From: Alphaproteobacteria bacterium
Lineage (GTDB): Bacteria; Pseudomonadota; Alphaproteobacteria; Rickettsiales; SXRF01
Reading direction: 5' to 3'
DNA length: 64,000 nt
Assembly: GCA_020049775.1 (NCBI GenBank)
Contig: JAGVLO010000008.1
Coordinates: 83,790 to 147,789 of the forward strand
Position numbers and translations under genes: made by a program. Below, piece after piece: positions 562-57,596 of the stretch. The notes beneath the pieces are model-generated. The model saw nothing but the letters and a program-made list of their open reading frames with translations, searched no databases and was not told where the DNA came from. How positions within the stretch are numbered: the first letter of the stretch is position 1; every line of letters starts with the position of its first letter.

Positions 562-1607
562 CTGCACCAGCGCAGCGTCTTTTCCGGCAGCCGGTTTTCA
601 AATGGCATGTTGTTTTGCTGCGCCTCAAGGAAATCTTTTTTCAGGCGGTAATACCAGAGCGCCTGCGCATCAGCATCACCAAGCAGCATCAGGCTCGGGT
701 GGTCACCGCTCAGTCCTTCCTGCTGTTTTTTGACAATTTCCAGATCCTGCCTGATAAAAGCCTTGCCGAATAATACCAGCAACGGCTTGAGGATGTTGAC
801 CAGCGGTATGGTCGAATACATGAACTGGTGCAACTCGGTTGTATCGGCATCAATCGGCGTCAGCGCCGTCAGCAGTACAATATGATGTTTACCAATGCTG
901 ATATGTTCCGTGCGCAGGCCCGGAAGCTGGAAAGAAATTTCCGTTGTTTTTTCACCGCCACCGAGAATTTTATAGGCGCGTGAATTCGATGAAGGCTTGT
1001 GATTTACCATCTTGAAGCCATACCCCACCGGAGCGAATTTCTTTTCCTTCAGATGCATCGAACGCTGGCTGCGCCACCACCATGACGCATGCACAAACGG
1101 CCCATGCGACGGATCCATCAGGCCAATAACAGCGTGGTCGATATTGCACGGGAACGTTACGGAATCGACCCAGCTGAATTTTGTCATTGTGATTGGGCTG
1201 GACGGTATTTCCGGCAATTGTTCAGGCACACGTGATTTTGGCGGCGGCACAAACACCCAGATATTGCCGTCCACCTCACGACAGGGGAATGATTGTGTTT
1301 TAATGCGTGAAATATCTGTCTTGTCTTCAGGCGTCAGCGAAGGAATCTTAGTGCATTTACCCTCGCTGTTAAAGCACCAGCCATGATAACAGCACTCAAT
1401 TTCCTTGCCATCAAATTTGCCATAGCGCAGGGGTACGCCCCGGTGCGGGCAAAAATCACGCAGCGCAAAAACTTTGCCTTCCTGGGTGCGCCCCAACAAC
1501 ACATCCTGTCCCAGTATTTTTTTTGCAAGCATCTTGCCAACGCGCAGTTGATGACCAGGCAGCGCTACATACCAGAGATTGTGAAGCAGTTCTTTATCGT
1601 TTTGCAT
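558..1607 (-). CDS. Rieske [2Fe-2S] non-heme iron oxygenase (PaO/Tic55-like)
   Basis: Rieske motif CPHRGVPL...CCYHGW near the N-terminus, followed by a catalytic domain of about 230 aa. The 349-aa length is typical. Confidence 0.8.
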   Translation of the reverse strand: MQNDKELLHNLWYVALPGHQLRVGKMLAKKILGQDVLLGRTQEGKVFALRDFCPHRGVPLRYGKFDGKEIECCYHGWCFNSEGKCTKIPSLTPEDKTDISRIKTQSFPCREVDGNIWVFVPPPKSRVPEQLPEIPSSPITMTKFSWVDSVTFPCNIDHAVIGLMDPSHGPFVHASWWWRSQRSMHLKEKKFAPVGYGFKMVNHKPSSNSRAYKILGGGEKTTEISFQLPGLRTEHISIGKHHIVLLTALTPIDADTTELHQFMYSTIPLVNILKPLLVLFGKAFIRQDLEIVKKQQEGLSGDHPSLMLLGDADAQALWYYRLKKDFLEAQQNNMPFENRLPEKTLRWCS

Positions 1608-1856
1608 GGGTTACCTAGTGTTTCCCAGCATCAGTAACCGCTTGCAAGGCTAACGTCAAATAATAGCTTATACATTCCTAAGCGTAATATTTTATATATT
1701 ATTGAGATATATTGATAAAATTACAATGCCTACCTAGAATCATGCATTATTTTTCCTTGGCCTTATTAACTCTAATTTTATGTATTGCTATCATATTCAT
1801 AACTATTAGTTTTCTAATTACGCTAAATATCCCTGCAACATAATTCTATAACGTAG

Positions 1857-3311
1857 ATGCGCTCTAAATCTCAGATTAAAGTACTGTGCTACATAGTTAC
1901 CTATAACGCCTCTCGCTTTATTGAAGAGGTCTTGAACCGCATTCCAGAAGAATGTTGGGCCAATGACCGTTATCAATTTGATGTACTCATTTCTGATGAC
2001 TGCTCACCTGACGATACCGTTGACGTATGTAAGCGTTATATTGATGGGTCAAAACACTCCATCAAAGTCTCGAGGACAAAGCATAATCTGGGATATGGCG
2101 GAAATCAGAAATTAGGCTACGACCATGCCATACACAATGGCTATGATGCCGTCGTGCTGCTTCATGGCGATGCACAATATGGCCCCGAATATTTACCGGC
2201 ATTGATTGATCCCATACTTGATGGAAAAGCTGATGTCATGTTGGGGTCGCGGATGATGCATAAGAAAGATGCACTCAAGGGCCGGATGCCATGGTATAAA
2301 TTTATTGGCAATATAACGCTTACCCAGTTCCAAAATTACATGCTCGGTAGTAAGCTGGCAGAATTCCATACGGGGTTACGGGCCTACTCGACAAAAAGTT
2401 TGTCTAACATAAACTATCGCTACAATAGCGATGGATACGTATTTGATACCGAAATACTTATACAGCATATAAATGCAGAACATCCCATCGGTGAAATTCC
2501 TATTGCGACCCGTTACGGCGATGAAGAATGCAACGTTAATGGCATCAAATATGCACTTCGGGTAGTCAGGAAAACCCTTGCATTCAGAATGCATAAGCTT
2601 GGTTTTTGCTACCTTCGGCAATATGACAAGGGGTATGGTGAATATCAATCAAAGACAGACTTCTATAGCAGCCATCGTTTTGCAATTGAACAGTCACAAA
2701 GCAGTGACCTATTACTGGATATAGGCGGCGGAAGCGGACATGTTGCCGGAGTATTGCATGAACAAGGCAAAAAAGTGCATGGTTTGGACAGTCGGGAAGC
2801 AGATGATCTAACCAGAAAAAATTATACTCATTATGTAAAAGTAGATCTGGATAGTTTTGCTGACTTTACTTCACTGAATATAAAACCCGATACTGTATTA
2901 TTGCTCGATATACTTGAACATCTCAAGCAGCCTGAGCGCCTTATTCACCATCTGCGTGATATATTGCGCCCCGAATCCAGACTAATAATTACTTTGCCAA
3001 ACGTAGCTTTTTTCAGTGTCCGTGTAAAATTACTCTTTGGTTTCTTCAACTATGGATCCAGAGGTACCATGGATCACACACACCTACGGTTCTTTACATT
3101 TTCGTCTATAGTAGCCATGCTTAAGAGTGAAGGGTATAAAATTACCCATGTGCGGGGTATTCCTGCGCCATTCCCGCTGGTAATCAAATGGAGGAGCTTA
3201 GCAACGCTCTGTATCAATATAAACAGCTTGCTGATAGCTATCCATAAAGGCTTGTTTGCCTATCAGATTGCAGTTATCGCACAGCCAAAGATTATTTCTC
3301 ACGACAGCTAA
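1857..3311 (+). CDS. bifunctional glycosyltransferase family 2 / class I SAM-dependent methyltransferase
   Basis: N-terminal GT2 signature (VTYNASRFIEEVL...ISDDCSPDDT...HGDAQY). The C-terminal half has a methyltransferase motif I (LLDIGGGSGHVAG) and LLLDILEHL. Confidence 0.8.
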   Translation: MRSKSQIKVLCYIVTYNASRFIEEVLNRIPEECWANDRYQFDVLISDDCSPDDTVDVCKRYIDGSKHSIKVSRTKHNLGYGGNQKLGYDHAIHNGYDAVVLLHGDAQYGPEYLPALIDPILDGKADVMLGSRMMHKKDALKGRMPWYKFIGNITLTQFQNYMLGSKLAEFHTGLRAYSTKSLSNINYRYNSDGYVFDTEILIQHINAEHPIGEIPIATRYGDEECNVNGIKYALRVVRKTLAFRMHKLGFCYLRQYDKGYGEYQSKTDFYSSHRFAIEQSQSSDLLLDIGGGSGHVAGVLHEQGKKVHGLDSREADDLTRKNYTHYVKVDLDSFADFTSLNIKPDTVLLLDILEHLKQPERLIHHLRDILRPESRLIITLPNVAFFSVRVKLLFGFFNYGSRGTMDHTHLRFFTFSSIVAMLKSEGYKITHVRGIPAPFPLVIKWRSLATLCININSLLIAIHKGLFAYQIAVIAQPKIISHDS

Positions 3312-4062
3312 AAAACCCGTCCACTATCCAGTGTGATAGCCAGCCCTGCACCCCGGCAGCTATGGGTTCAACCATGTCGGAATGGCTTTCCACCACCGCG
3401 TCAAGCGCATCACCAACACTCTTTCCACTGATAATTTCCTGCAACAGATAATAGGACGGCTCCTGCAACATGGTGCGCTGCACTTCATTGTTGTGGCGAT
3501 AGACATATACATAACTCGCCTGTTTCAATGGCGCATCTACTATTCCGTTCGTACGCTGCCTGTCCAACCATTCGCTTACCGGATAGGAAAACGCAATCAG
3601 TTGGGAAGCCGCTCGCGGCTTCAGCACTAGTCCAGCGAGGCCTTCTATGGTCAGCCCTTCCAGTGCAGCGGGCAAAAGTGGTGTACTTTCCTCCATCATG
3701 AATACACGCGAAATCGTCCGTTCAAGCTGTGCCACCTCGCGAGCAAAATCCGGCTGCTGACTTATTGCCACGAAATCCGCAAAACCATGCGGGTAAAAAT
3801 CGAGATTGTAATATACTGACGGCGTCTGCCGGACGTATTCCTGTGCCAGCCCATCAAACGCAGGCGCCCCCAGCAATGCCAGCAACGCCGGATAATCCGC
3901 ACGTATGGCACCTAGCAGACGCAATATGTAACCGTCGCTGTAAATGGCCAGCTGCTGTTCTGGTGTAAGCCTTGGGTGTTTTTTTACCGATGTAACAACT
4001 GGTGACGTATCGCCGGTAATGACAGTGTGGTGAAATTTCTCCAGCAGCTTTTGCATGGTCAC
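3292..4062 (-). CDS. bufC: DUF2063 protein, BufC-like partner of the MNIO enzyme
   Basis: Start overlaps the stop of the DUF692 gene (ATGA). N-terminal FHHTVITGD...QLAIYSDGY matches the DUF2063 pattern. It has the operon position expected of bufC. Confidence 0.75.
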   Translation of the reverse strand: MTMQKLLEKFHHTVITGDTSPVVTSVKKHPRLTPEQQLAIYSDGYILRLLGAIRADYPALLALLGAPAFDGLAQEYVRQTPSVYYNLDFYPHGFADFVAISQQPDFAREVAQLERTISRVFMMEESTPLLPAALEGLTIEGLAGLVLKPRAASQLIAFSYPVSEWLDRQRTNGIVDAPLKQASYVYVYRHNNEVQRTMLQEPSYYLLQEIISGKSVGDALDAVVESHSDMVEPIAAGVQGWLSHWIVDGFFSCREK

Positions 4063-4916
4063 GCCGCCTGCGTTGCTGATTGACGTGCAAGCTGACGTGC
4101 TTTTCCAATCTCCTGCTGCAGCACATCAAAAGCAGGGATGTGATCATCCCATTCCACCATGGTGGTTTTCATGCCTTTTGTGCGTACCAGATAGGCGTAC
4201 AAATCCCACACCTCAGGTATTACGTGGTGGTCATGCGTATCTATGATATATGTACCCAGATTGAGGTGTCCCGCCAGATGCACCTGCACAATGCGCTCAG
4301 CTGGCAGCGCATCAATATAACGTTTTGGGTCATATCCGTGATTGAATGAGCTGACATAGACATTGTTTACGTCCAGCAACAGAGCGCAATCAGCTTCTTC
4401 GGAAAGGCGAGCGAGAAAATCCCACTCCGACAGTGTTGATTCATTAAACTCGAGGTAGCTTGAGGGATTTTCCAACACTAGGGGGCGCTGCAAAATATCC
4501 TGCACCTGTTTTACCCTTGATACAATATGGGTAAGCATTTCTTCCGTATATGGCACAGGCAATAAATCATGGGTGTTTTTACCCTGTACGCCCGTCCAGC
4601 ATAAATGGTCAGAGACCCATGGAGGTTGCAGGAAATCTGCCAGTGCTTTCAGCTTCTTTAAATAATCTTTGTTCAAATCATCGCTGGATCCAATCGACAG
4701 CGACACACCGTGCATCACGATGGGATAATGCTTGCGCACGTCTCCCAGAAATTCCCAGTACCCCTTGTGCGCCTCCAGAAAATTTTCTGAAATCACCTCA
4801 AACCAATCAACAGTGGATGACTTGCCCTCGCGCATCATAGACAATACGCAGTCATAATGATCGGCTCTCAGCCCAAGCCCGAATCCCAGCTGTGGTAGTC
4901 TAAATCGGTTTGACAT
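4059..4916 (-). CDS. bufB: DUF692 / MNIO (multinuclear non-heme iron oxidative) family RiPP maturase, BufB-like
   Basis: PQLGFGLGLR...DWFEVISENF...HGVSLSIGS...VSDHLCW...LENPSSY...QVHLAGH are DUF692 (TIM-barrel) hallmarks. I prefer the ATG at 4916 (GGAGA 5 nt upstream) over the TTG at 4934 used by the ORF track. Confidence 0.85.
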   Translation of the reverse strand: MSNRFRLPQLGFGLGLRADHYDCVLSMMREGKSSTVDWFEVISENFLEAHKGYWEFLGDVRKHYPIVMHGVSLSIGSSDDLNKDYLKKLKALADFLQPPWVSDHLCWTGVQGKNTHDLLPVPYTEEMLTHIVSRVKQVQDILQRPLVLENPSSYLEFNESTLSEWDFLARLSEEADCALLLDVNNVYVSSFNHGYDPKRYIDALPAERIVQVHLAGHLNLGTYIIDTHDHHVIPEVWDLYAYLVRTKGMKTTMVEWDDHIPAFDVLQQEIGKARQLARQSATQAA

Positions 4917-4933
4917 AAGGTCTCCAAAAAGCA

Positions 4934-4959
4934 AGAGGCCCGCCTCACGGCGGGCCTCT
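4934..4959 (-). terminator. intercistronic stem-loop (attenuator or partial terminator) between bufA and bufB
   Basis: Perfect 11-bp stem AGAGGCCCGCC / GGCGGGCCTCT with a 4-nt loop. On the minus-strand transcript it is followed by UGCUUUUU, 15 nt after the bufA stop. Confidence 0.5.
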
Positions 4960-4974
4960 CCATCTCAAAAACTA

Positions 4975-5238
4975 TTAGCCTTTGGTCTTTGGCTCTAACT
5001 TGCCACCTTCTTTTTCGCAAGTACCCTTAGCTACATACTTCCATTCATCAGCATCGCCATCCTGCTTTGCCTGGCCAGCGCATGCATGCGAGCCATTGGC
5101 TGCTTTGCAGTCATTCTTACCAGCCTTGGCAATGCCATAGCACTTTTCTTTTTCAGCAGCAGCTGCATGATTATCGGCCTGAGCAATACCAGCCGCCAGA
5201 ACGCCCGCGAGAGCAACGGAAAGAAGCAGTTTATTCAT
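4975..5238 (-). CDS. bufA: DUF2282 / BufA1-type bufferin precursor peptide (secreted, 4 Cys)
   Basis: Sec signal peptide ([21 protein letters not shown]). The core has Cys at residues 33, 44, 53 and 74 in the pattern [12 protein letters not shown]...HACAG...KGTC typical of DUF2282. It lies directly upstream of the DUF692 and DUF2063 genes. Confidence 0.8.
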
Positions 5239-5470
5239 AAAATTATCTCCATAGAAGTTATATAGTTTTCAAGAGTTACGGGTGTTAACTACCCAACCCG
5301 CGACGATATTCGTATCACCAAACCAAAAAAGTTACATCTTTAAATTTTGTAATGTTTCAAAGCCTAACCTATATTAACGGGAAAAATAAATAGCGGTGGC
5401 GATTTATGCATTTATCGCCTATAAACATATTGTAATTGAATAGAAATTAACAACAAACAAGCGACTGGGC

Positions 5471-6442
5471 ATGAAAGTATTACTAACCGGTGGCGCCGGA
5501 TATGTTGGCAGCCATGTGCTAAGAAAATTATGTGATCAAAAAATATCGACACTGGTATTTGATGACCTTTCCAGCGGCCATAAGGAATTTATTGGCGACA
5601 ACCCTTTCATGCAAGGCGATATCAGCAAGATTGAGTCTGTAGACGGCGCATTTGCACAATTCAGGCCAGACATGGTGTTTCATATTGCAGCGCTGGCGAC
5701 TTTAAGTGAATGCAGCAAACGACCTGATGACTGCCACCGTGTCAATGTTACCGGCACACGCAATATCCTTGATGCCATGCGCAAACATGGAGTCAAGCAC
5801 ATGGTTTTCGCCAGCAGCTGTGCCGTGTATGCTAACGCCAGGACAATGACTGCACTGCGAGAAACCGATGAAATTGGGCCAATAAGTCCCTACGCAGAAT
5901 CCAAACGCGATTGCGAGGTGCTGCTGCGCGAATATGATAGTAAATACGGCATACGCTCTGTGGCATTCCGTATATTTAATGTATCAGGCGCACATCCCGA
6001 GGCCAACATTGGCGAACGCCATAATCCTGAAACGCATCTGCTTCCGCTTGTCATAGACACCATGCTCGGGCGCAGGCCGGCCATTTATATTTATGGTAAC
6101 GACTACCCCACCCCTGACGGCACCGCCGTGCGCGATTATGTACATGTGTGGGACATCGCCGAGGCATTCTTTCGTGCCGGCAAATTGCTGGGGGAAGGAA
6201 GCCCGTCACATATCCTGAACCTAGGTTCAGGCGTAGCAACCTCTGTCTATGACCTAATAAATGCTGTGAAAATTCAGGCAAAAATGGATGTTCCCTCTTC
6301 GCTGCAATCGCGTCGCGAAGGCGATTCCGCCTGGCTGTTTGCGGATGCTGCACTGCTTGAAAAAACATTACGATGGAAACCTGAGTGGTCAAATATGCAG
6401 GCCATTATCCAGACAGCTTTGAAATGGCACCAAAACCAGTAG
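5471..6442 (+). CDS. galE: UDP-glucose 4-epimerase
   Basis: N-terminal GGAGYVGSH Rossmann motif, a YxxxK catalytic motif (PYAESK), 323 aa, and a GalE-like C-terminus. Confidence 0.85.
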   Translation: MKVLLTGGAGYVGSHVLRKLCDQKISTLVFDDLSSGHKEFIGDNPFMQGDISKIESVDGAFAQFRPDMVFHIAALATLSECSKRPDDCHRVNVTGTRNILDAMRKHGVKHMVFASSCAVYANARTMTALRETDEIGPISPYAESKRDCEVLLREYDSKYGIRSVAFRIFNVSGAHPEANIGERHNPETHLLPLVIDTMLGRRPAIYIYGNDYPTPDGTAVRDYVHVWDIAEAFFRAGKLLGEGSPSHILNLGSGVATSVYDLINAVKIQAKMDVPSSLQSRREGDSAWLFADAALLEKTLRWKPEWSNMQAIIQTALKWHQNQ

Positions 6443-8250
6443 CTATTATTTCATCTATAGAGCTAAAGCATTGCCTGTTCCTGCTATGTACGCTGGTCCT
6501 AGCGATGCACTGGTTTGCATTACCTAAAATGGAACTGGTTGAGAAACAGATTAATGGCAAAGTTGTAGACACACTTACGCTGATGCCTGCTGATATTGGA
6601 GTAACCAATAATAACAGTGTCGCTGCATATGGCGAAGTAACTTATAAATACGCAATAGAACACCGTTCAGGCCAGCAAACAAATTTTCACTTCTATCCCA
6701 AAGGCTGCCTGTCACGTGTCACGCTCAATGGCTACCCAATACCATACCCTATGGTTTCTCACTGTAGCTTTGAGATGGGGCTGACTATTGACCTGGAAGA
6801 CTACCTTCAGGAAGGAAAGAATACACTTATTGTTGTCAAAGATGGCTGGAAGCTGGTGTTGGGACCCTTGATATTTGGGGAGGATTTTGGCTTATCTAGC
6901 ATATTGGGCGGCCTTCTTATTGCCGTAGCTTTTCTGACTATTATACGTTTTGTAGAAAAGCTTACACATGATCATATTGCAGCGTGCATCATTGCATGTG
7001 GATTTCTTCTGTATCTTTACATACTGAATAATACCACGTTTATGTGGAAAAAATATGATATGCCGCAGCATCTCGATTATGCGGCGTTTATAGCTAATCA
7101 CCTTAGATGGCCAAGCACTACACAGGGATTCCTGACCTATCACCCCCCTCTGTACTATACGCTTCAGGCGATAGTAATCTTATTAGCAAATTTTTTAGGT
7201 AGTTTTGAGGTGGTTTCTGTAATGCGTATGTTTAATGTCGCGTGCTTTATGGCGTTTCTGATTTTCGCAAGTGCAACATTAAGAAAATATATCAAAAATA
7301 ATATAGCGTATTATACAGCACTCATATTTCTTGTGTTTTACCCGGGCAGTGGCGTCATTTCTGTCCGCATGGACAGCAATTTGCTATTCTACCCTTTGTA
7401 TATGGGGTGTATTTATTTTACTGTCTGCTGGCTAGAGAATAGGCAATACCGACAATTAGGCTATGCGCTTGCCATGTGTGGCCTTGCAATGGCTACACGA
7501 TCTAACGCACTTCTATTACTACCCATTATAGGTATAGCCGCTTTATATCAATGGAAGAGGGTAAATTTTTGGTACCTGTTTTCCTGCCTGAGGTCACGTG
7601 CAGTACTGATAGGAATACTTGTGCTTCTGATTGGCACCGCTGCAAATTTTGGCCGTCCAGCCTATGAGCATATGGGTAGCAAGCGCAATCATGATTATAT
7701 CGTTGCCAATGCCGGTTATCTTGCTTCCATTGCACGAGGGTTGCGCATAACCAATACATTGGATCATTACGTCAGCTTTGATTTTAATGAGTACATTGCA
7801 CCGCCTTATTTCAATGTCTGGTGGGATAAAGGTGGGCGCCATTACTTCTGGATAACTGCAATCAAATCTTCTATGTACGGCGAATTTTCTTTCCCTAATG
7901 GATGGATTGCCGTGTATCTAAACATAATTATATTGGCTATTATTGCCTATATTGCTACAACAATAGCTATGGGATACCGGCATCTGCCCAGAGAGGCAGA
8001 ATGGCTGATATTCCTGATTACGCTCATAATACCCTTGGCCGGATTAGCCGCTAACCGCATTCTCCACCCTATCGCCTGCTCGCAGGACTTTCGTTATGTC
8101 TATCCGGCGATTGCTTCATTCTGCGGGCTAATTGGCTTTGCCATCCAGCAAAACCTAGCCCAAAACAGAATGCTCATGGCTGCCACCGGCATCGTGGCAG
8201 CAGGAATATTCGCCCTGTTCTCGTTATTGTTTTTCCTGAAGATGTTCTAG
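6424..8250 (+). CDS. polytopic membrane protein, GT-C-like (ArnT/PMT_2-type) putative glycosyltransferase with an N-terminal extracytoplasmic domain
   Basis: More than 10 predicted TM helices after a soluble domain of about 120 aa. The architecture resembles ArnT/PMT_2 proteins. Start is ambiguous (GTG 6385, ATG 6424, ATG 6505). No sequence search was run. Confidence 0.5.
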   Translation: MAPKPVAIISSIELKHCLFLLCTLVLAMHWFALPKMELVEKQINGKVVDTLTLMPADIGVTNNNSVAAYGEVTYKYAIEHRSGQQTNFHFYPKGCLSRVTLNGYPIPYPMVSHCSFEMGLTIDLEDYLQEGKNTLIVVKDGWKLVLGPLIFGEDFGLSSILGGLLIAVAFLTIIRFVEKLTHDHIAACIIACGFLLYLYILNNTTFMWKKYDMPQHLDYAAFIANHLRWPSTTQGFLTYHPPLYYTLQAIVILLANFLGSFEVVSVMRMFNVACFMAFLIFASATLRKYIKNNIAYYTALIFLVFYPGSGVISVRMDSNLLFYPLYMGCIYFTVCWLENRQYRQLGYALAMCGLAMATRSNALLLLPIIGIAALYQWKRVNFWYLFSCLRSRAVLIGILVLLIGTAANFGRPAYEHMGSKRNHDYIVANAGYLASIARGLRITNTLDHYVSFDFNEYIAPPYFNVWWDKGGRHYFWITAIKSSMYGEFSFPNGWIAVYLNIIILAIIAYIATTIAMGYRHLPREAEWLIFLITLIIPLAGLAANRILHPIACSQDFRYVYPAIASFCGLIGFAIQQNLAQNRMLMAATGIVAAGIFALFSLLFFLKMF

Positions 8251-22361: not shown

Positions 22362-22435
22362 GCGGGTGTAGTTCAATGGTAGAACGGCAGCTTCCCAAGC
22401 TGCATACGAGGGTTCGATTCCCTTCACCCGCTCCA
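22362..22435 (+). tRNA. tRNA-Gly (anticodon CCC), CCA encoded
   Basis: Cloverleaf readable by eye: acceptor GCGGGTG/CACCCGC, D-arm TAGTTCAATGGTAGAAC, anticodon stem GCAGC/GCTGC with loop TTCCCAA, T-arm GAGGGTTCGATTCCCTT, then discriminator T and CCA. Confidence 0.9.
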
Positions 22436-39688: not shown

Positions 39689-42600
39689 ATGCATATTGAG
39701 CGTCATTTCACCAAAGCGGATTTAAAGAATATCGAAGCGGTCTATAATGCTATTCCTTTCCGCAAGGTAGACGTGGTGATGAAAAATCCCGATGGCTCTA
39801 TCGTGTTCGAAGCCCGCGGCACCGAAGTGCCTGAAAGTTGGTCACAGGTCGCTTGCGACGTCATCTCACAGAAATATTTCCGTAAGGCAGGTATTGCCGC
39901 CCGCCTGAAAAAAGTCGAGGAAGCCACCATCCCGTCATGGCTGTGGCGCTGCGTGCCAGACGAAGACGCACTGGAAAAACTTCCGGCGGCGGAACGTTAT
40001 GTCGGCGAAACATCCGCCAAGCAGGTGTTCAACCGCTTAGCCGGCGCATGGACCTACTGGGGCTGGAAAGGCGGCTATTTCGATACCGAAGCCGATGCCC
40101 GCACCTTCTATGATGAAATGCGCATGATGCTGGCGCTGCAGATGGCGGCACCGAATTCCCCGCAATGGTTTAATACCGGCCTGCACTGGGCGTACGGCAT
40201 CGACGGCCCGAGCCAGGGACATTATTATGTTGACCCCGACACCAAAAAACTGACCAAGTCCAAGAGCGCCTATGAGCGCCCGCAGCCCCACGCCTGCTTT
40301 ATTCAAGGCGTGCGTGACGACCTCGTCAACGAAGGCGGCATCATGAATCTGTGGGAGCGCGAAGCGCGCCTCTTTAAATATGGTTCCGGCACCGGAAGTA
40401 ATTTTTCCGACCTGCGGCGGTGGTGAAAACCTCTCCGGCGGCGGCAAATCTTCGGGCCTGATGAGCTTCCTCAAAATCGGCGACCGTGCCGCAGGTGCTA
40501 TCAAATCCGGTGGCACTACCCGTCGCGCCGCCAAGATGGTGGTAGTGGATATCGACCATCCGGATATTGAGGAATTTATTACATGGAAAGTGATTGAGGA
40601 GCAGAAAGTAGCAGCGCTGGTCACCGGATCCAAGGTGTGCAGCAAGCACTTAAGCGCCATCATGGCCGCCTGCAAACAAGGTGAAAGTGAATCGCGCTTT
40701 TCACCCTCCGATAACCCGACCTTGAAAAAAGCTGTGCGTGAAGCGCGCAAGGCGCTGGTGCCGGAAAATTATGTGCTGCGCGTCATTGAATTCGCAAAAC
40801 AGGGTTTCACCGATATCGAATTCCCCGAATACGACACCGACTGGGACTCCGAAGCTTACCTCACCGTTTCCGGACAGAACTCCAATAACTCGGTGCGCGT
40901 GACCAACGAATTTCTGGATGCAGTGGCGGCAGACAAGCCATGGCACCTGCTTAACCGCACCAACGGCAAGGTATCAAAAACCATTCCTGCCCGCGAACTG
41001 TGGGACGAAATCGGCTATGCCGCGTGGGCATGTGCTGACCCCGGATTGCAATACGACACCACTATCAATGAGTGGCACACCTGCCCTGAGTCCGGCCGTA
41101 TCCGTGCATCCAACCCTTGCTCGGAATACATGTTCCTCGACGACACGGCGTGCAACCTCGCCTCCATCAACCTGCTGAAGTTCAAGCGCGACAATGGCAC
41201 GTTTGACGTCACCTCGTTTGAATATGCCACACGCCTGTGGACAGTAGTGCTGGAAGTATCTGTGCTGATGGCGCAATTCCCGTCCAAGGAAATTGCCCAG
41301 CTATCTTATGACTTCCGCACGCTCGGGCTTGGCTATGCTAATATCGGCGGCCTGCTGATGGCAACCGGCGTACCTTACGACAGCGCAGAAGGCCGCGCCA
41401 TAGCCGGTGCTATCACTGCTGTCATGACCGGTGTCGCTTACGCCACTTCCGCTGAAATGGCGAAGGAACTCGGCGCGTTCGACGGCTACGACAAAAATCG
41501 CCACCATATGATGCGCGTTATCCGCAACCACAGCCGCGCTGCACGCGGCGAAGCCACAGGCTACGAAGATCTTTCGATACTGCCGGTATCGCTGGATATC
41601 GTAAACTGCCATGACAAGGAAATAGTCAAGGCAGCAAAAAAAGCGTGGGAAACGGCTATCATGCTCGGTGAAAAATATGGTTTCCGCAATGCGCAGACCA
41701 CCTGCATCGCCCCCACGGGAACGATTGGTCTGGTTATGGATTGCGACACCACCGGCATCGAACCGGACTTTGCGATTGTGAAGTTCAAGAAGCTCGCTGG
41801 CGGCGGCTATTTCAAAATCATCAACCAGCAAGTACCCGAAGCACTCAAGACGCTGGGCTACACGCAAAAGCAGATTCAGGATATCGTGGATTACGCAGTG
41901 GGCCGAGGCACACTGAAAGATTCGCCGCGTGTCAATCATGCGGCGCTCCGCGCCAAAGGCTTTGATGATGATACGCTGGCCAAGATTGAAAAATCGCTGG
42001 CCGCAGCGTTTGAAATCAAGTTCGCTTTCAACAAATGGACGCTGGGTGAAGAGTTCTGCCAGAAGAAACTCGGCTTCACCGATGCGCAGCTGAATGACTA
42101 CAGCTTTGACATCCTGTCCGCCCTTGGCTTCTCCAGAGCCGACATCGATGCCGCCAACGAATATTGCTGCGGCACCATGACGGTGGAAGGCGCACCGCAC
42201 CTGAAGGAAATCCATCTTCCGGTGTTTGATTGCGCCAACCCGTGCGGCAAAACCGGAAAGCGTTATCTTTCCGCTGAAAGCCATATCCACATGATGGCCG
42301 CCACGCAGCCCTACATCTCCGGCGCTATTTCCAAAACCATCAATATGCCCAACACGGCAACGGTGGAAGAATGCAAAAGCGCCTACCTTCTGTCATGGAA
42401 GCTCTGCCTGAAAGCCAATGCATTGTACCGTGACGGTTCCAAGCTGTCACAACCACTCAATGCGGCCATCGCTGCAGAACTGGATGTAGCCGACGACGAT
42501 GATGACAAACAGACCCAGATGCAGGCACTTCGCCAGCCGCAGGTCATTGCCGAGCGCATCGTGGAACGCTTCATCGCCCAACAGAGACGCAAGCTGCCGG

Positions 42601-43385
42601 AACGCCGCAAGGGTTACACCCAGAAAGCATCTGTCGGTGGCCACAAGGTTTACCTGCGCACAGGTGAATATGAAGATGGCGAGCTGGGTGAAATCTTCAT
42701 CGACATGTACAAAGAAGGCGCAGCCTTCCGCTCGCTGATGAATAATTTCGCCATCGCAGTGTCCATCGGCCTGCAGTACGGCGTGCCGCTGGAAGAATTC
42801 GTGGACGCATTCACCTTCACCCGCTTCGAGCCGTCGGGTATGGTGGAAGGCAACGAAGCCATCAAGATGTCCACATCCATCCTAGACTACATCTTCCGCG
42901 AGCTGGCTATTTCCTACCTTGGCCGCAACGACCTCGCGCATGTGGAAATGGGCGATGTGCGCTCCGATACCATTGGCCGCGGCGCAGGTGATTCCACCCG
43001 CCCTACCGACCAGCCGGAGCTGCCCCAGCTGTTCAATAAAGTGACCAGCACTGGCTTTGTACGCGGCAAGCTTTATGTCGTGTCCAACAACAAACCCGCC
43101 GCAGGAACGCCGCAGAATATGATTTCGCATGGTGCGCTGGCCGTAGCCACGGGCAGCGTTACGGAAACCAAGGCATACCTGCAAACCGAAACTGACGGAG
43201 TCACCGTCAAGGTCGGCGTGTCGGTACAGGGCAATGAAAATGTCGTAATCAGTGAGCGCATCCGCGAAGCCAAAGCCAAAGGCTATGAAGGCGATGCATG
43301 CACCGAGTGCGGTAATTTCACGCTGGTGCGCAACGGCACCTGCATGAAGTGCGATACATGCGGCGGCACGAGTGGCTGCTCATAA
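39689..43385 (+). pseudogene. nrdJ: vitamin B12-dependent (class II) ribonucleotide reductase, reading frame broken at ~40412-40426
   Basis: ORFs 39689..40426 (245 aa) and 40380..43385 (1001 aa) are consecutive parts of one long alphaproteobacterial NrdJ. The first ends ...[18 protein letters not shown]. The second continues in the +1 frame with [41 protein letters not shown]. The C-terminal Cys-rich tail (CTECGN...CMKCDTCG) is present. Confidence 0.9.
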
Positions 43386-51087: not shown

Positions 51088-51216
51088 ACATATAATACAA
51101 TATGTTGTTTTGTTATTGACCATTCCTCTGCGTGTCGCTCACCGATTGACATAAACCCAATAGAAATGTTAGGGTTATATATCTACCATGGTATATAGCA
51201 GTTGTTAGGGAATGTT

Positions 51217-51489
51217 ATGGCAAAGGGTAAATTTCGCAGGTATCTGAGAGTAACCGTCCGCACAGGATTGGTATGCGCTTTGATGGCTGTTTGTTTTCTT
51301 CCTGGTATCGGGCCACAAGGTTCCCTTAACAAGGGTGAGGCGCAAGCCTTTACCGCTTCGACTGCTACCACTACGGTTGTAGTACCGGAACTTCCGGTAA
51401 TACTTGTGCCTGCTTTATTGCTGATTGCAGGACGCATGGGTGCATCTGCCCGTAAACGTGCGAAAGAGAGCCTAAAAATCATATCATAG
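51217..51489 (+). CDS. tiny secreted protein with a PEP-CTERM-like (VPELP-TM-basic) exosortase sorting signal
   Basis: N-terminal signal peptide (KFRRYLRVTVRTGLVCALMAVCFL), a short Thr-rich linker (FTASTATTTVV), then VPELP + VILVPALLLIAG + RMGASARKRAK. Lies convergent to the exosortase-family gene, 15 bp away. Confidence 0.55.
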   Translation: MAKGKFRRYLRVTVRTGLVCALMAVCFLPGIGPQGSLNKGEAQAFTASTATTTVVVPELPVILVPALLLIAGRMGASARKRAKESLKIIS

Positions 51490-51504
51490 TTATTGTGTAA
51501 GGCC

Positions 51505-52473
51505 TTAGGCTTGGTCGGCTGCTTTTTTACGGCTGGTCCATGCATAAAGGCACCAAAGAAATAGTGCTATTGCTATTGTATCAAAAACAAACCCTACGTT
51601 TGAATGAAACATAGCCATTGTTTTTTCTACTACCGCCCTTTCGCTTTCATGCCTGAGCAAATATTCGCCATAAAGAAAGATAGTGGACATACGAAGCACA
51701 TTCACAAAAAGCATGTAGAATATGCCGATCAGGTACCATTCCAGCAACGGTTTGCCGGCAAATAATTTCCAGTCAATAAGAAGAAATAGCGAGAATAGGT
51801 AGAACAAAAGGAAAACGCCTTCTATTCCGCTGCATTCCGGATAAATATTCATGGCGAATGTATTGGACATCAATACACCAATACCATCTTTGAAACCTGC
51901 CCACGCCTGGATGTCGAATAGCTGCAAAATCATCCGCAACGAAAATACGGTTGCCCCATACAACCGTACCCAGATGATTTCTGCAAATATCATATAGGCC
52001 GCAGGACTGATGGTTGCAATCAGCGCAATCACCGCCGGAATCGGATATTTCCGCAAGCGCTTTACAAACGATTGGTAAGGCACAAGAACAAAAAACGAAG
52101 CCATCATCGCAAGTATGGCAAGTAGGCATGCCACCGGCCCCACCCCGTGCCTTCCCGCCAGCAATACCCCCAACAGCAACAGCATAGTGATAATATAAGG
52201 CTTCAGCCGGTGCCTCATGACAAAAGGTATGCTATATTCGCGGTCCAGCAGCCGGATAAATAATGCCATCGGCAATATAAGCGTCACTAGCAATACCATC
52301 AACCGGTTGCTGAGCGACACTTCATTGCGCTCACCTCCGACAATAATGCCTGTTAGCCTCGTATCACCCCAGAATCCTTCATACACCCCATATAAAATTA
52401 CGGCAAGGAAGCCCAGTACGGTAAGCGGAAACAGCATCAACCACCAAAACCGCCTGTCCTGCAGGCATTCCAT
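51505..52473 (-). CDS. exosortase/archaeosortase family transpeptidase
   Basis: Polytopic membrane protein carrying the three family catalytic motifs in order: Cys (NIYPECSGIEG), Arg (FVNVLRMS) and His (FHSNVGF). Start is ambiguous (52602, 52557 or 52473). Confidence 0.7.
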   Translation of the reverse strand: MECLQDRRFWWLMLFPLTVLGFLAVILYGVYEGFWGDTRLTGIIVGGERNEVSLSNRLMVLLVTLILPMALFIRLLDREYSIPFVMRHRLKPYIITMLLLLGVLLAGRHGVGPVACLLAILAMMASFFVLVPYQSFVKRLRKYPIPAVIALIATISPAAYMIFAEIIWVRLYGATVFSLRMILQLFDIQAWAGFKDGIGVLMSNTFAMNIYPECSGIEGVFLLFYLFSLFLLIDWKLFAGKPLLEWYLIGIFYMLFVNVLRMSTIFLYGEYLLRHESERAVVEKTMAMFHSNVGFVFDTIAIALFLWCLYAWTSRKKAADQA

Positions 52474-52528
52474 AGGCACAAGCCAGACTAGTGCTTTCTG
52501 AATTACGCTGAAAATCGAATTCACTGCA

Positions 52529-53266
52529 TTAGTCACTACTACTGCTCCCGTATCCATAGAGTATGTGGCCGTTGCTACCCAACCAGTCGCGCCACTGCAC
52601 ATGTCCCGGCGACAATTGTTCTACCACGCTCCAAAACGTATCGCTGTGGTTGAACTCTTTCAGGTGCGCAACCTCATGACTAACTACATAATCAAGTACG
52701 GGATAGGGCGCAAGCACAAGACGCCATGAGAAAGAAAGATTGCCGTCATAGCTGCAACTACCCCAGCGCGAAATCGTATCACGCACCGTAACCTGCCTAA
52801 CCTGCTTGCCTATTATCTGCGCCTTGCTGCGGGCAAGCCCATTGAGATGTTCGCGCGCGCAGCGCCTGAGCCAGTCCTGCACGCGGCGGCTCATGAATTC
52901 CGCTTCGCCGGGAACAAGCATGTCACTGCCGCTAAGTGTAATAACGCCCCTTCCCCCGACATGGCGCAAACACACTTCCTTGCCCAGCAGGGGTAATAAC
53001 TGGCCATCGACAAAGGGAAAGTGTTGCACAGTTTCATCAATTTGTTTTTCAATCCACTTTCTTTTCTCTTCTATGAAATGTAATCCTTGCTTGATACTCA
53101 CATATCGGGGTAAGGTGAGCAGCAAATGTTGCTGCAAGGGTTGATACCGTAGCGTCATGCGCCTCGATGACCTGTGCCGGCGGATAACAATGGGCATACG
53201 GCGGGTGTTTTCGCCCGCACAAAGCTCAATAAAATGGGATGTAACATGCAATGGCTGTTTTTTCAT
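52529..53266 (-). CDS. DUF45/YgjP-like M48-family metal-dependent hydrolase
   Basis: C-terminal HEVAHLKEFNHS (HExxH...H) motif and WGSCS segment are typical of DUF45. ATG at 53266 avoids overlap with dnaG. Confidence 0.75.
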   Translation of the reverse strand: MKKQPLHVTSHFIELCAGENTRRMPIVIRRHRSSRRMTLRYQPLQQHLLLTLPRYVSIKQGLHFIEEKRKWIEKQIDETVQHFPFVDGQLLPLLGKEVCLRHVGGRGVITLSGSDMLVPGEAEFMSRRVQDWLRRCAREHLNGLARSKAQIIGKQVRQVTVRDTISRWGSCSYDGNLSFSWRLVLAPYPVLDYVVSHEVAHLKEFNHSDTFWSVVEQLSPGHVQWRDWLGSNGHILYGYGSSSSD

Positions 53267-53278
53267 AAAGTGTAATAT

Positions 53279-55129
53279 ATGAGATTTCCGCCTTCTTTCA
53301 TAGAACGTCTTCGCTCCCACTTCCTGATGTCAGAAGTAGTAGGCAAGCGCGTGTCTCTCAAGAAGCATGGCCGCGAATATCAGGGGCTGTGTCCTTTCCA
53401 CAAGGAAAAATCTCCTTCTTTTACTGTCAATAACGAAAAGAATTTTTTCCATTGCTTCGGTTGCGGCGCGCATGGAGATGCCATCGAATTCGTACGCCGC
53501 TTTGAAAAATTATCCTATGCGGAAACCATCGAAAGCCTGGCGCGTGATGCTGGGATACCGCTGCCGGAAGTTTCGCCTGAACAGGCACGCAAGGCCGAAG
53601 TAGAAAAAACATTATACGACGTGCTGGAGGCCGCCACCCAGTGGTTTGAGCGCCAGCTCATGGGTTCTTCAGGAACAGTGGCACGCGACTATCTCGAAAA
53701 ACGCGGCCTGAAATCAGAGACCATACGCACTTTCCGCGCCGGATACGCTCCGGACGAGCGCACTGCGCTCAATCAGTATCTGACCACCGCTGGTTTTTCT
53801 CCGGCGCTGCAGGCCGAAGCCGGTTTGATTATTGTACCGGAGACCGGCCCCACTTACGACCGTTTCCGTGGCCGCGTCATGTTCCCCATCCGCAATGCCA
53901 ATGGCAGGGTGGTGGCGTTCGGGGGACGCCTGATTGCCTCCAATACCCACAACAAAAGCCTGCCTAAATACCTCAACTCACCCGAAACGCCGGTCTTCAG
54001 GAAGGGTGAGCTGCTCTATAACCTCGACCTTGCCAAAAAATCCGCCCGCGACGGCAATGTCGTGGTGGTCATGGAAGGTTACATGGACGTAGTTTCCACC
54101 GCGCAGGCGGGCGTACCCTATGCCGTGGCCACGCTGGGTACCGCCGTCACACCTGAGCATCTGAGGCTTTTGTGGCAACTTGCTAAAGAACCTGTCATCT
54201 GCCTGGATGGTGACGAAGCCGGAAAGCGCGCCATGATGCGCGCCGCCGAAGTAGCGTTGCCGCTACTCAAACCCGGCTTCAGCTTACGCTTTGCGCGCCT
54301 GCCACAAGGCGAAGATCCTGATTCCTATATCCAGAAAAATGGCAAAACCAGCTTTGAAAAAATCCTGCTCACCTCACGCAGGCTGTCACAAGTGCTATGG
54401 GAAGATCTGTCGCCACAGTACAATACCGAACTACCCGAGGGCCGGGCCGAGCTGGAAAATATCCTCAAAAACCTTGCGGAAAAAATACCAGATACCACCG
54501 TCAAACAGCACTATCTCTCCTATTTCCGGCGCCAATTGTGGGCGCGCCCTCTCAAGACCACCATGCCTGGGAAGACCTCAACGGCCGCACGCGCCGCAAC
54601 ACAGGAGCGCTCGCCGCAGGTGGAGCATCTCATCAATCGCAATCACTCCGTTGCCCTTGAAATGCTTGTGCAGCGCCTGCTGACCATTTTGCTCAAATTT
54701 CCCCAGCTTCTGCATAAGAGCCATGTGGAAGAAACACTGTCGCGCCTCGACATCCAGAGCAATGTCTTAAGCGCCCTGCGCAACGCCATGATTGCGGCCA
54801 TTACCCAGTCGAATATCGACCAGCCGGAACAGTTCATCGCATATCTTGAGCAGCATTTCCATGGCTCACTTCCCATTTCAGCCTCGGGCAACGGCCTCAA
54901 ATTGCCGTATGCCAATACCTTAACCGGTGACGATGCCGCACTGCTATGGAGCGAAACCGTGTCCGCCTATGAGGTGGCGCATTTGCAGTTTGAGATAGAA
55001 GAAGTGCAGGAAAGCCTTGGCCAGTCTATGAATGAGGCCTCCCTGCAGCGCCTGACCGAGTTGCAGCAAGCCTTGTGGAAAGCACAGGACAACCGCCAGT
55101 TTGCACGTTCCGAACCCGATATGGCATAG
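53279..55129 (+). CDS. dnaG: DNA primase
   Basis: Zn-ribbon CPFHKEKSPSFTVN....FHCFGCGAHGD, followed by a TOPRIM domain (VVVMEGYMDV...DGDEAG). Confidence 0.95.
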   Translation: MRFPPSFIERLRSHFLMSEVVGKRVSLKKHGREYQGLCPFHKEKSPSFTVNNEKNFFHCFGCGAHGDAIEFVRRFEKLSYAETIESLARDAGIPLPEVSPEQARKAEVEKTLYDVLEAATQWFERQLMGSSGTVARDYLEKRGLKSETIRTFRAGYAPDERTALNQYLTTAGFSPALQAEAGLIIVPETGPTYDRFRGRVMFPIRNANGRVVAFGGRLIASNTHNKSLPKYLNSPETPVFRKGELLYNLDLAKKSARDGNVVVVMEGYMDVVSTAQAGVPYAVATLGTAVTPEHLRLLWQLAKEPVICLDGDEAGKRAMMRAAEVALPLLKPGFSLRFARLPQGEDPDSYIQKNGKTSFEKILLTSRRLSQVLWEDLSPQYNTELPEGRAELENILKNLAEKIPDTTVKQHYLSYFRRQLWARPLKTTMPGKTSTAARAATQERSPQVEHLINRNHSVALEMLVQRLLTILLKFPQLLHKSHVEETLSRLDIQSNVLSALRNAMIAAITQSNIDQPEQFIAYLEQHFHGSLPISASGNGLKLPYANTLTGDDAALLWSETVSAYEVAHLQFEIEEVQESLGQSMNEASLQRLTELQQALWKAQDNRQFARSEPDMA

Positions 55130-55316: not shown

Positions 55317-57596
55317 ATGAAAGGTACGGCGACAATGGCACAAAAACGCGGCACAAAATCGGCAAAACCAGCAAAAGCATCTGCAAAAAACAAGGGTCGT
55401 GAAAAGAAAGTCAAGGCGAAGATAGCGCCCGCAAAAAAAGCAGCACCCGCAAAAACAAAGCAGGCACCCGCTAAAACGCCAAAATCATCTGCTTTTAAAA
55501 CCTCGGTGAGAAAGCCTGAACTAAAAGCCGCGCCCGCTAAAAAAGCCGTCGTGCCTGTCCCGCAAAAACAGGATAAAAAAAGCGCCGCTATTGAAAAAAA
55601 AGCTGCCGCCAAAGGAGCTAAAAATACTAAAAAGGAAGACGCCGCCACCAGCAAGGAAGACGCGCAGGTACAGCAGGCCATTGTCCGCAAACTGCTCGCT
55701 ATGGGCAAGGCTCGCGGCTACATCACCTATGATGAATTAAACGCCATCTTGCCAGCCGAAGAATTCTCGCCAGAAGTGATTGATGCCGCAATTGGTGCGC
55801 TGGCATCGGCCGACATCAGCGTAGTAGAAGAAGAAACGCCCATGGATCCGGTGGAAAGCCCGGAAGGTTTTGTCGCTGAAGAAACAGAAAATGTTGGCCG
55901 TTCCGACGACCCTGTTCGCATGTACTTGCGCGAAATGGGCAATGTTGAACTGTTATCGCGCGAAGGCGAAATCGAGATAGCCAAGCGTATCGAGGCAGGC
56001 CGCGAAACCGTTATCAGCGCCCTGTGCGAAAGCCCGCTGGTGATGAAAGAAATTCTGTCATGGCGCGATGAGCTGGATGCCGGCACGTTGTTGCTGCGCG
56101 AAATCATCGACCTCGACGCCACCTACGGCGCAGGCAATGAAAATGGCGAGTTCTCCGGCGTAGGCATGCCGATTGCCAGCGACCGCCCCGTTGCCAAAAT
56201 AGAAGAAAAAATTGAAGCGGCGGAAGAAGAAGAGGAAAGCAAAGAAGGCAAAGACGGTGAGGAAGGCGAAGAGGGTGAAGAAGGCACTACCGCCGAAGCA
56301 GAAGAAGATCCAGAAGAAGACGATGGTTCTATCTCCTTGCTCGCGATGGAAAATGCGCTTAAGCCACAAATTCTGGAAACACTCGACCAGTTCGCCAAGA
56401 TCAGCAAAAAAATGCGCATCCTGCAGGAAAAACGCCTGACACGCTCATTTGGTGAAGGCCGCTACAGCAAAGATGATGAAAAGGCCTACCAGAAACTTCA
56501 CCGCGAACTGGTGGAGCTGATGATGGGCATGCGTTTCACTATCTACCGTGTGGAGCTGCTGATTCTTAAACTCTACGACATCAACAAGCGCCTGATGACA
56601 CTGGAAGGCCGCCTGATGCGCCTTGCCGAAAACCGTAAAGTAAACCGCAAAATATTTCTGGAAAACTATATTGGCAATGAACTTGATCCAACATGGCTCA
56701 AGCGCATGGAAGAACGCACCGATAAGGGTTGGAAAGAATTTGTTACCAAAGATAAGCCAGAGATTGACGAAATCCGCGCTGAAATCGCACAGATGGCCGG
56801 CGCCGCCGGCCTCGATATCGGCGAATTCAAGCGCATGATCATGGCCGTGCAAAAAGGTGAACGCGAAACCAACCGCGCCAAGAAAGAAATGATCGAGGCC
56901 AACCTGCGCCTCGTAATTTCTATCGCCAAAAAATATACCAATCGCGGCCTGCAGTTCCTCGACCTGATTCAGGAAGGCAATATCGGCCTGATGAAGGCGG
57001 TGGATAAATTCGAATACCGCCGTGGCTATAAATTCTCCACCTATGCAACATGGTGGATTCGCCAGGCGATTACCCGCTCTATCGCCGATCAGGCGCGCAC
57101 CATCCGCATCCCTGTCCACATGATCGAAACCATCAACAAGATTGTGCGCACCAGCCGCCAGATGCTGCATGAAATGGGCCGCGAGCCAACGCCGGAAGAA
57201 CTGGCGGAACGCCTTGTCATGCCGCTGGATAAAGTACGCAAAGTGATGAAAATCGCCAAGGAACCGGTATCGCTCGAAACCCCCATCGGCGACGAAGAAG
57301 ACTCGCATCTCGGCGATTTTATCGAAGACAAGAACGCCGTATTGCCGCTGGATGCCGCCATTCAGTCTAACCTGCGCGAAACCACCACCCGCATTCTGGC
57401 CTCCCTCACCCCGCGTGAGGAACGCGTGCTGCGTATGCGTTTTGGCATCGGCATGAACACCGACCATACGCTGGAAGAAGTCGGCCAGCAATTCTCGGTA
57501 ACGCGTGAACGTATCCGCCAGATTGAAGCCAAGGCACTGCGCAAGCTGAAGCATCCAAGCCGCTCGCGCAAACTACGCAGCTTCCTCGACTACTAA
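55317..57596 (+). CDS. rpoD: RNA polymerase sigma factor RpoD with a Lys/Ala/Pro-rich N-terminal extension
   Basis: Regions 1.2-4.2 are present (YLREMG, region 2 [58 protein letters not shown], and region 4 [20 protein letters not shown]). Conserved dnaG-rpoD linkage. Confidence 0.95.

Follow-up and report, generated by a model that had tools for sequence, protein, structure and literature searches.

A 64,000-nucleotide (nt) stretch of a Rickettsiales contig (JAGVLO010000008.1; "the window" denotes this whole stretch) contains two genes that meet tail to tail: a minus-strand gene for a membrane protein of the exosortase/archaeosortase family and a plus-strand gene for a mini-protein of 90 residues (Table 1). 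An earlier account drawn from the DNA letters alone (the sequence-only reading) had taken them for an orphan exosortase and its single, nearly cargo-less substrate, with convergent stop codons 15 bp apart. The stop codons do lie at that distance, the enzyme's occupying 51505-51507, and the description of one enzyme with one target is well supported by comparative genomics: the two families are the only ones shared between distant loci, the linker that stands in place of a passenger is the least conserved part of the mini-protein, and in one lineage (L017) the same type of tail ends a protein that does carry cargo.

Table 1. Features of the enzyme-target pair and its surroundings in window coordinates (aa, amino acids; pN and pS, nonsynonymous and synonymous differences per site).
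Feature	Coordinates	Strand	Remarks
Promoter-like block: TTGACA, 15 nt, then TGTTAGGGT	51146..51175	+	Conserved; includes the first GTTAGGG; putative promoter
Palindrome TACCATGGTA (51184-93) and second GTTAGGG (51204-10)	51184..51210	+	Not conserved; second GTTAGGG overlaps a GGGA resembling a ribosome-binding site
Mini-protein gene, 90 aa	51217..51489	+	Basic N-terminus, helix 1, juxtamembrane motif, variable linker, VPELP, helix 2, basic cluster
CFLPGIGPQGS codons (aa 26-36), end of helix 1 and juxtamembrane motif	51292..51324	+	C26, F27, P29, G30 and G32-S36 invariant (alignment A2)
GEAQA (aa 40-44), small-x-small site	51334..51348	+	Constant distance from the PG motif; signal peptidase I may cut here
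Linker FTASTATTTVV (aa 45-55)	51349..51381	+	Entire "passenger"; pN 0.39, pS 0.63; mean pairwise identity across lineages 4%
VPELP (aa 56-60), signature motif of the sorting signal	51382..51396	+	P57 and E58 invariant in 8/8 aligned targets; 60-66% identity
Helix 2 (VILVPALLLIAG) and basic cluster RMGASARKRAK	51397..51465	+	From hydropathy; tail pN 0.085, pS 0.67
Exosortase/archaeosortase-family gene	51505..52536	-	343 aa from GTG 52536; alternative ATG 52557 gives 350 aa
H311-S-N-V-G315 codons (H-x-x-x-G motif; FHSNVG)	51592..51606	-	His codon 51604-51606; H311 and G315 invariant in A5
N279-V-L-R282 codons (N-x-x-R motif)	51691..51702	-	Arg codon 51691-51693; N279 and R282 invariant in A5
Cys235 codon (PECSGIEG), putative nucleophile	51832..51834	-	Invariant in the 15-sequence alignment A5
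WLVPMEC codons (aa 18-24), subclade-specific N-terminal motif	52465..52485	-	Confined to P0001-P0004, P0018 and P0019 among 152 family representatives
YgjP-like (DUF45) HExxH metallopeptidase gene	52529..53320	-	PF01863, 1.1e-46; immediately upstream of the enzyme gene

The enzyme displays the features by which the exosortase family was defined, namely a Cys, an Asn-x-x-Arg and a His-x-x-x-Gly motif (Haft et al. 2006; PMC1569441), among which a Cys/Arg/His triad is suspected (10.1101/2023.06.07.544157). The three motifs that the sequence-only reading had picked out in this order on the minus strand, PECSGIEG, NVLR and FHSNVG, are all in place, and the residues C235, N279, R282, H311 and G315 (numbered on the 343-residue form) are invariant in alignment A5, whose 15 relatives extend down to 22% identity. 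Scoring against profile hidden Markov models, which had been suggested as a check, gave a match to the general model TIGR04178 (exo_archaeo) of 28.7 bits against a cut-off of 23, over residues 252-355 of the 365-residue open reading frame (ORF); relatives (P0018-P0037, L013, L016 and L017) score 27-40 bits on the same model. None of the NCBIfam models for named Xrt/Art subfamilies, XrtA/EpsH, XrtE, XrtF, XrtH, XrtK, XrtX, ArtC and ArtF among them, matches the window enzyme even at E<=10, and its relatives reach no subfamily cut-off (ArtC 18-25 bits against 100, XrtX 34.5 against 170, XrtK 25 against 55). Pfam-A likewise returned no exosortase family match (Exosortase_EpsH-type) at E<=10. The missing Pfam match shows how far the enzyme has diverged and is not in conflict with the TIGR04178 result; one source already annotates the protein automatically as a superfamily member.

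Orthologues of the enzyme are 78-80% identical to it and distant homologues 30-40%. A word-indexed protein search returned only four enzyme and four mini-protein clusters; the wider enzyme clade became visible by exhaustive profile search, which placed 392 representative clusters in it at E<=1e-3. Scanning GTDB genomes with a protein pattern made from the close-clade alignment yielded no matches, and a degenerate DNA pattern for CSGxEG...S...L.DW gave 13 matches, three of them true homologues. The sequence-only reading had started the enzyme at 52473 or 52602, and both positions now appear unlikely. A KALVWLVPxEC block, kept in all close and distant full-length relatives, is encoded upstream of Met 52473, and the relatives carry V, A or L in place of this Met, so the start lies upstream of 52473. 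Database gene calls begin either at GTG 52536 or at ATG 52557, the latter of which would overlap the YgjP-like gene.

Hydropathy indicates eight or nine hydrophobic segments, and an AlphaFold 2 model of moderate confidence (pLDDT 71.6, pTM 0.69) is nearly all-helical and polytopic. The positive-inside rule favours eight membrane crossings with both termini inside, which would put Cys235, Arg282 and His311 toward the periplasmic face; this arrangement fits the rule only if residues 187-206, with their two Arg, lie as a helix at the interface and do not cross. Neither sequence nor fold comparison turned up a solved structure similar to the enzyme (best E by fold 0.18, TM-score ~0.15).

The mini-protein opens with a basic N-terminus (K3, K5, R7, R8, R11 and R15) and a 15-16-residue hydrophobic segment ending in CFLPGIG, which is followed by PQGSLNKGEAQA, the linker FTASTATTTVV, VPELP, the second hydrophobic segment VILVPALLLIAG, RMGASARKRAK and 7 further residues. 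The 90-residue ORF, the VPELP motif, the hydrophobic helix and the basic cluster were thus located correctly from the letters alone. The tail was also classed correctly as a tripartite C-terminal sorting signal as such signals have been characterized (10.1101/2023.06.07.544157), for it combines motif, helix and basic cluster in a protein that begins with a signal or anchor segment. The check proposed for it turned out otherwise: neither the PEP-CTERM model nor any other curated model of a C-terminal signal matches the mini-proteins, and no Pfam or NCBIfam family covers them. That the ORF is a conserved gene is clear from four orthologous mini-proteins (orthologues P0006-P0008 are 69-75% identical) and from purifying selection, with pN 0.19 against pS 0.75 relative to the L005 orthologue (pN/pS ~0.25). 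Synonymous sites are saturated in this comparison, and constraint is strongest on the tail and weakest on the linker.

Across lineages the two genes stay together. A check on co-occurrence, also called for by the sequence-only reading, found a homologous mini-gene or a gene with the same tail beside the enzyme in six of seven lineages, five times convergent and once co-directional. The seven lineages bear Planctomycetota and Rickettsiales labels and their neighbouring genes are otherwise unrelated; in an all-against-all BLAST of the seven loci, the enzyme and the mini-protein/target were the only families common between lineages. A mini-protein profile matched each paired mini-gene and nothing else in the loci or the window. 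Members of the window clade (the window, L005/L006, L024 and the P0003/P0006 genome) share one gene order, aroK-aroB-DUF6898-PBP1A-mini, then the convergent enzyme-YgjP pair, then dnaG-rpoD. Distant lineages have different surroundings and again a small gene at the 3' end of each enzyme gene. In L001-L004 (labelled by NCBI as a Gemmatales metagenome-assembled genome, MAG) a convergent mini-gene abuts the enzyme stop (L001 7005/7006) amid MacAB-TolC-type efflux genes and a giant protein with a TPS (two-partner-secretion) domain; in L007 the convergent mini-gene lies 12 bp from the enzyme, in L008-L010 it overlaps the enzyme by 4 nt (L009 1496-1499), and in L016, an uncultured Rickettsiales MAG, it is co-directional and directly downstream. 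The gap between convergent gene ends is 15 bp in the window (51490-51504) and 0-29 bp, or a 4-nt overlap, in other lineages. A terminator or other structure in the 15-bp junction was considered and rejected, as the window junction has no significant hairpin (z-score -0.62) and no terminator-like site was called there; with no such structure between them, the enzyme and mini-gene transcripts probably overlap at their 3' ends.

A target with cargo is found in L017, a Fuerstiella MAG, where a 184-residue convergent target (779-1330, plus strand) meets the enzyme gene (1329-2987, minus strand) with abutting stop codons. This protein has a Sec signal (AEA|AADW), a Cys-rich domain of ~140 residues and a tail of the form TPELTP-helix-KVRQ (VTTPELTPMAAAILVGFALLIGWKVRQ). 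The Cys-rich domain matches nothing in Pfam or NCBIfam and is unrelated to the mini-proteins; L017 is the single example of the same signal on an otherwise unrelated protein. The presence of this tail on a Cys-rich protein favours the view that the tail serves for sorting and that the mini-protein is a target which has shed its cargo. The L017 enzyme has an N-terminal extension of ~300 residues in which Pfam recognizes no known domain; the related representatives P0022 and P0023 are extended at the N-terminus to a similar degree, again by uncharacterised sequence, and Pfam finds no domain in such extensions of related enzymes.

Conservation within the mini-protein is unevenly distributed. The sequence-only reading had named a signal peptide, but residues 1-44 are more than a plain leader: the best-conserved segment of the whole protein, CF[LI]PGxGxQG, sits there. 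At the end of helix 1, CF[LI]PGxGx[QE]G[SK] reaches 65% mean pairwise identity (window, L001, L007 and L009), the highest of all segments, against 60% for VPELP. A lipobox at Cys26 was considered and rejected: in the alignment, position -1 is V, I, L or F, not G, A or S. A G[DEN][AV]xA site aligns without indels in seven sequences at a fixed distance after PG. The helix-1 motif is missing from the L016 and L017 targets and occurs only with enzymes having the N-terminal WLVPxEC; those enzymes form one clade, so the co-occurrence counts as a single evolutionary event. In eight aligned targets the Pro and Glu of the signature are invariant within [VA]-P-E-[LMI]-[PE], behind which come a hydrophobic helix and a C-terminal end rich in Arg. 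The L017 protein has TPELT, and the family form is [VAT]-P-E-[LMI]-[PTE].

The linker is the least conserved part and varies widely in length: it is Thr/Ala-rich in the window clade, LPVDEEEIP in L001, a run of seven Gly in L007 and cut down to about three residues in L009 and to two in L016, and indels between close relatives come in multiples of three. The sequence-only reading had suggested a Thr-rich, possibly O-glycosylated linker. Because Thr richness is lineage-specific, giving way to Glu-rich, Gly7 or virtually absent linkers elsewhere, glycosylation is not a conserved feature, and the passenger is dispensable. Judged on comparative sequence evidence, the pair is a real, self-contained and previously uncurated enzyme-target module.

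The region upstream of the mini-gene had been called structured, and every element named is present there, but only part of it is conserved. The first GTTAGGG (51168-74) belongs to the conserved block, in which TTGACA can be read as a -35 element and TG-T-TAGGGT, 15 nt later, as an extended -10 element; a promoter consensus scan made no call at this block. By contrast, the palindrome and the second GTTAGGG are absent from L005, L006 and L024, where 10 bp are deleted. The block itself, CCGATTGACA..AACCC.A.AGAAATGTTAGGGTTATA, is kept in the window, L005, L006 and L024, and the rest of the spacer diverges. The GTTAGGG pair with the palindrome as an operator was rejected for want of conservation, and GTTAGGG is not over-represented in the window (5 occurrences against 4.4 expected).

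Upstream of the enzyme, the stop codon of the YgjP-like gene precedes GTG 52536 by 4 nt. This spacing suggests an operon, and the two genes are probably co-transcribed, in the window clade only: the YgjP-enzyme order is kept in L005, L006, L024 and the P0003 genome and is not found in distant lineages. A third conserved gene of the module was looked for and not found; outside the window clade neither the YgjP-like protease nor PBP1A adjoins the pair. A functional link between the protease and the exosortase is possible, if unsupported.

The sequence-only reading had seen no exopolysaccharide (EPS) locus around the pair, and this holds for the flanks, where xerD, aroK, aroB, DUF6898, PBP1A, YgjP-like, dnaG and rpoD are housekeeping genes. 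It also holds for 30 of the larger ORFs of the window (all >240 residues), which include neither genes for polysaccharide export or polymerases nor Prs regulators of the sigma-54 type. A glycan-related group lies 43 kb from the pair (1857-8250, plus strand) and comprises a GT2 glycosyltransferase-methyltransferase fusion, an NAD-dependent epimerase and a PMT_2/ArnT-like membrane glycosyltransferase.

Elsewhere in the window, a bufferin-type operon for a peptide made on the ribosome and modified after translation (RiPP; 3292-5238, minus strand) encodes an 87-residue protein resembling a precursor, with Cys motifs and a signal peptide (4975-5238), an MbnB/TglH/ChrH (DUF692) enzyme (4059-4934, 1.4e-106) and a DUF2063 protein (3292-4062). 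A class II ribonucleotide reductase (39689-43385, plus strand) appears to be divided between two overlapping frames, the N-domain at 39689-40426 and the barrel with TSCPD at 40380-43385, which could reflect a frameshift, an assembly error or a genuine split. RpoD (55317-57596, plus strand) has a Lys/Ala/Pro-rich N-terminal extension of ~110 residues, and its length of 759 residues recurs in relatives. The sole RNA-family match in the window is a tRNA-Gly(CCC) (22362-22435, plus strand), and PADLOC reported no defence-system match.

Based on these comparisons, we propose with moderate confidence that the mini-protein is the dedicated target of an enzyme from a divergent, uncurated exosortase/archaeosortase subfamily, the two genes forming a sorting module. 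One kind of tail on unrelated protein bodies, always beside this kind of enzyme, is what should be seen if the tail is the sorting signal of a dedicated system. The target would insert into the membrane as a helical hairpin with its basic N- and C-termini in the cytoplasm, which would bring VPELP to the periplasmic end of helix 2, where Cys235, Arg282 and His311 of the enzyme would also lie. Cys235 would cleave there, at or just after Pro-Glu, so that helix 2 is lost together with the basic tail. If sortase and ArtA are taken as a guide, the reaction could pass through an acyl-Cys intermediate, from which the new C-terminus would be transferred to an acceptor or to water. The target of the window lineage would have lost any passenger domain. 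A second cut, by signal peptidase after GEAQA, would leave a peptide of ~12 residues as the product; otherwise it would be a stub of ~58 residues anchored by helix 1 and bearing CFLPGIGPQGS.

Several observations weigh against this proposal. The best signal-model scores among the homologues stay well under their cut-offs (Heimdall-CTERM 14.2 bits against 24, FxDxF PEP-CTERM 12.2 against 50), and the small-x-small, AxA-like site lies 12-14 residues past the hydrophobic core, a long distance for signal peptidase I. The Rickettsiales enzyme homologue L013 has no adjoining target in the DNA covered, which extends only 190 bp upstream of it. The search for further targets covered 64 kb of the genome, and this also qualifies the words "orphan" and "single substrate" of the sequence-only reading: one such tail was found among 1234 ORFs, a count that speaks for the window. 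Finally, the conservation of helix 1 would be unexpected for a disposable signal peptide and would better fit a stable partner. The mini-protein might accordingly be a two-helix pseudo-substrate, regulator or subunit that occupies or gates the active site, comparable to BofA, a small membrane protein that keeps the intramembrane protease SpoIVFB inactive; the real substrates would then be encoded elsewhere. Such a partner would explain why conservation peaks at the juxtamembrane end of helix 1 (65%), why this motif and the enzyme's WLVPxEC are found in the same four lineages only, why the passenger can shrink to 2-3 residues and why the PG-to-AxA spacing is fixed. It would not explain the exact tripartite sorting-signal architecture of the C-terminal module, the recurrence of its motif at the end of the L017 cargo protein or the L016 mini-protein, which lacks the helix-1 motif and retains both tail and adjacency; nor were other candidate substrates seen in the window. 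On balance we regard a stable partner as an unlikely, if coherent, explanation.

A peptide-maturation system of the AgrB/AgrD kind also deserves consideration. AgrB is a polytopic membrane cysteine protease encoded beside its small precursor AgrD, in which conserved flanks surround a variable core. The window pair resembles this system in architecture only: a polytopic cysteine protease gene adjoins a small precursor whose flanks are conserved around a fast-diverging core (linker pN 0.39, with indels in multiples of three). If signal peptidase and the exosortase were to excise that core, a peptide of 12-14 residues in the window clade could be released as a strain-specific signal or toxin, possibly cyclised or modified at its new C-terminus. 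However, the proteins are not homologous, and the enzyme has no AgrB-family match in Pfam at E<=10. The core is of low complexity (Thr/Ala, Glu or Gly7), contains no cysteine for a thiolactone and, at ~2-3 residues in L009 and L016, is too short for a specific signal, and no receptor, sensor, exporter or regulator gene is conserved alongside. We therefore hold this explanation to be improbable. That the small ORF is a chance frame or the decayed remnant of a larger PEP-CTERM gene, adjacent to the enzyme by coincidence, is effectively refuted. It is indeed very short, matches no family and is overlapped by an antisense ORF of 120 residues, but it encodes a conserved protein despite saturated synonymous sites, its homologues stand in unrelated contexts beside enzymes only 30-40% identical, and the block upstream of it is conserved.

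Returning to the proposal of a dedicated target, the conserved helix-1 motif raises the question of what purpose a sorting system serves when nothing is sorted. One answer, to which we give low odds, is that the exosortase fold has been recruited beyond passenger sorting. The enzyme might mature a micro-protein whose functional part is CF(L/I)PGxGxQG on helix 1, cutting it at PE and linking the new C-terminal Glu covalently to an acceptor, be it its own N-terminus, peptidoglycan, a glycan or a lipid, to give a tiny anchored, tethered or cyclic peptide; or the hairpin might act as a pseudo-substrate gate. Should this be true, the cargo-less substrate would be the point of the system and not a degenerate remnant.

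Of the known systems, PEP-CTERM with XrtA/EpsH (PMC1569441) is similar in both of its components: its enzyme is polytopic with an invariant Cys, N-x-x-R and H-x-x-x-G, and its tail is tripartite, running from a Pro-Glu motif through a hydrophobic helix to a final cluster of Arg/Lys at the very C-terminus. The window enzyme differs in falling below every subfamily cut-off and outside the Pfam family, and its target has PE-x-P in place of PEP and escapes the PEP-CTERM model. Whereas the classic enzyme serves many dispersed targets near EPS and PrsK/PrsR/PrsT genes, the window pair has, within the 64 kb, one adjoining and essentially passenger-free target and no such genes nearby.

One-to-one adjacent systems are a recognised category of sorting enzymes, sortases and rhombosortases among others, in which conserved adjacency stands in for the many-to-one co-occurrence signal (PMC3237569; 10.1101/2023.06.07.544157). 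Adjacency in six of seven lineages, together with the absence of any other shared family, is what such a dedicated system should present, and in dedicated rhombosortase/GlyGly-CTERM (PMC3237569) and JDVT-CTERM pairs (10.1101/2023.06.07.544157) the enzyme and its only target are likewise neighbouring genes. Those pairs have real passenger domains and rhomboid or Rce1-like enzymes, whereas the passenger in the window is a variable linker. For the step after cleavage, the best mechanistic template is the homologous archaeosortase A of Haloferax volcanii with its PGF-CTERM substrates; experiments on it support both the loss of the substrate's C-terminal helix and the addition of a lipid at the new C-terminus (10.1101/2023.06.07.544157; PMC7157517). 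ArtA differs in being archaeal, in acting on many large glycoproteins and in its PGF motif; the window enzyme does not match the ArtA model, and its relatives show only faint ArtC or ArtF matches far under the cut-offs.

The enzyme superfamily and the concept of dedicated adjacent pairs are already known. Our literature search found no description of a PExPT-type signal or of cargo-less exosortase targets. What is new is an uncurated enzyme subfamily with ~390 representative clusters in its wider clade, a PE-x-P variant of the signal, and a target reduced to signal and tag in which a conserved juxtamembrane motif takes the place of the passenger; both the subfamily and the signal variant could become annotation models. 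Exosortase chemistry after cleavage is open, as to both whether the enzyme is a one-step transpeptidase and which acceptor it uses (10.1101/2023.06.07.544157). Classic exosortase systems are hard to study in this respect, with dozens of large glycosylated substrates in EPS loci. The window pair consists of one enzyme and one target, no further component being conserved, and would allow about as simple an exosortase assay as can be designed; its main value should lie in offering a minimal, tractable system for this chemistry.

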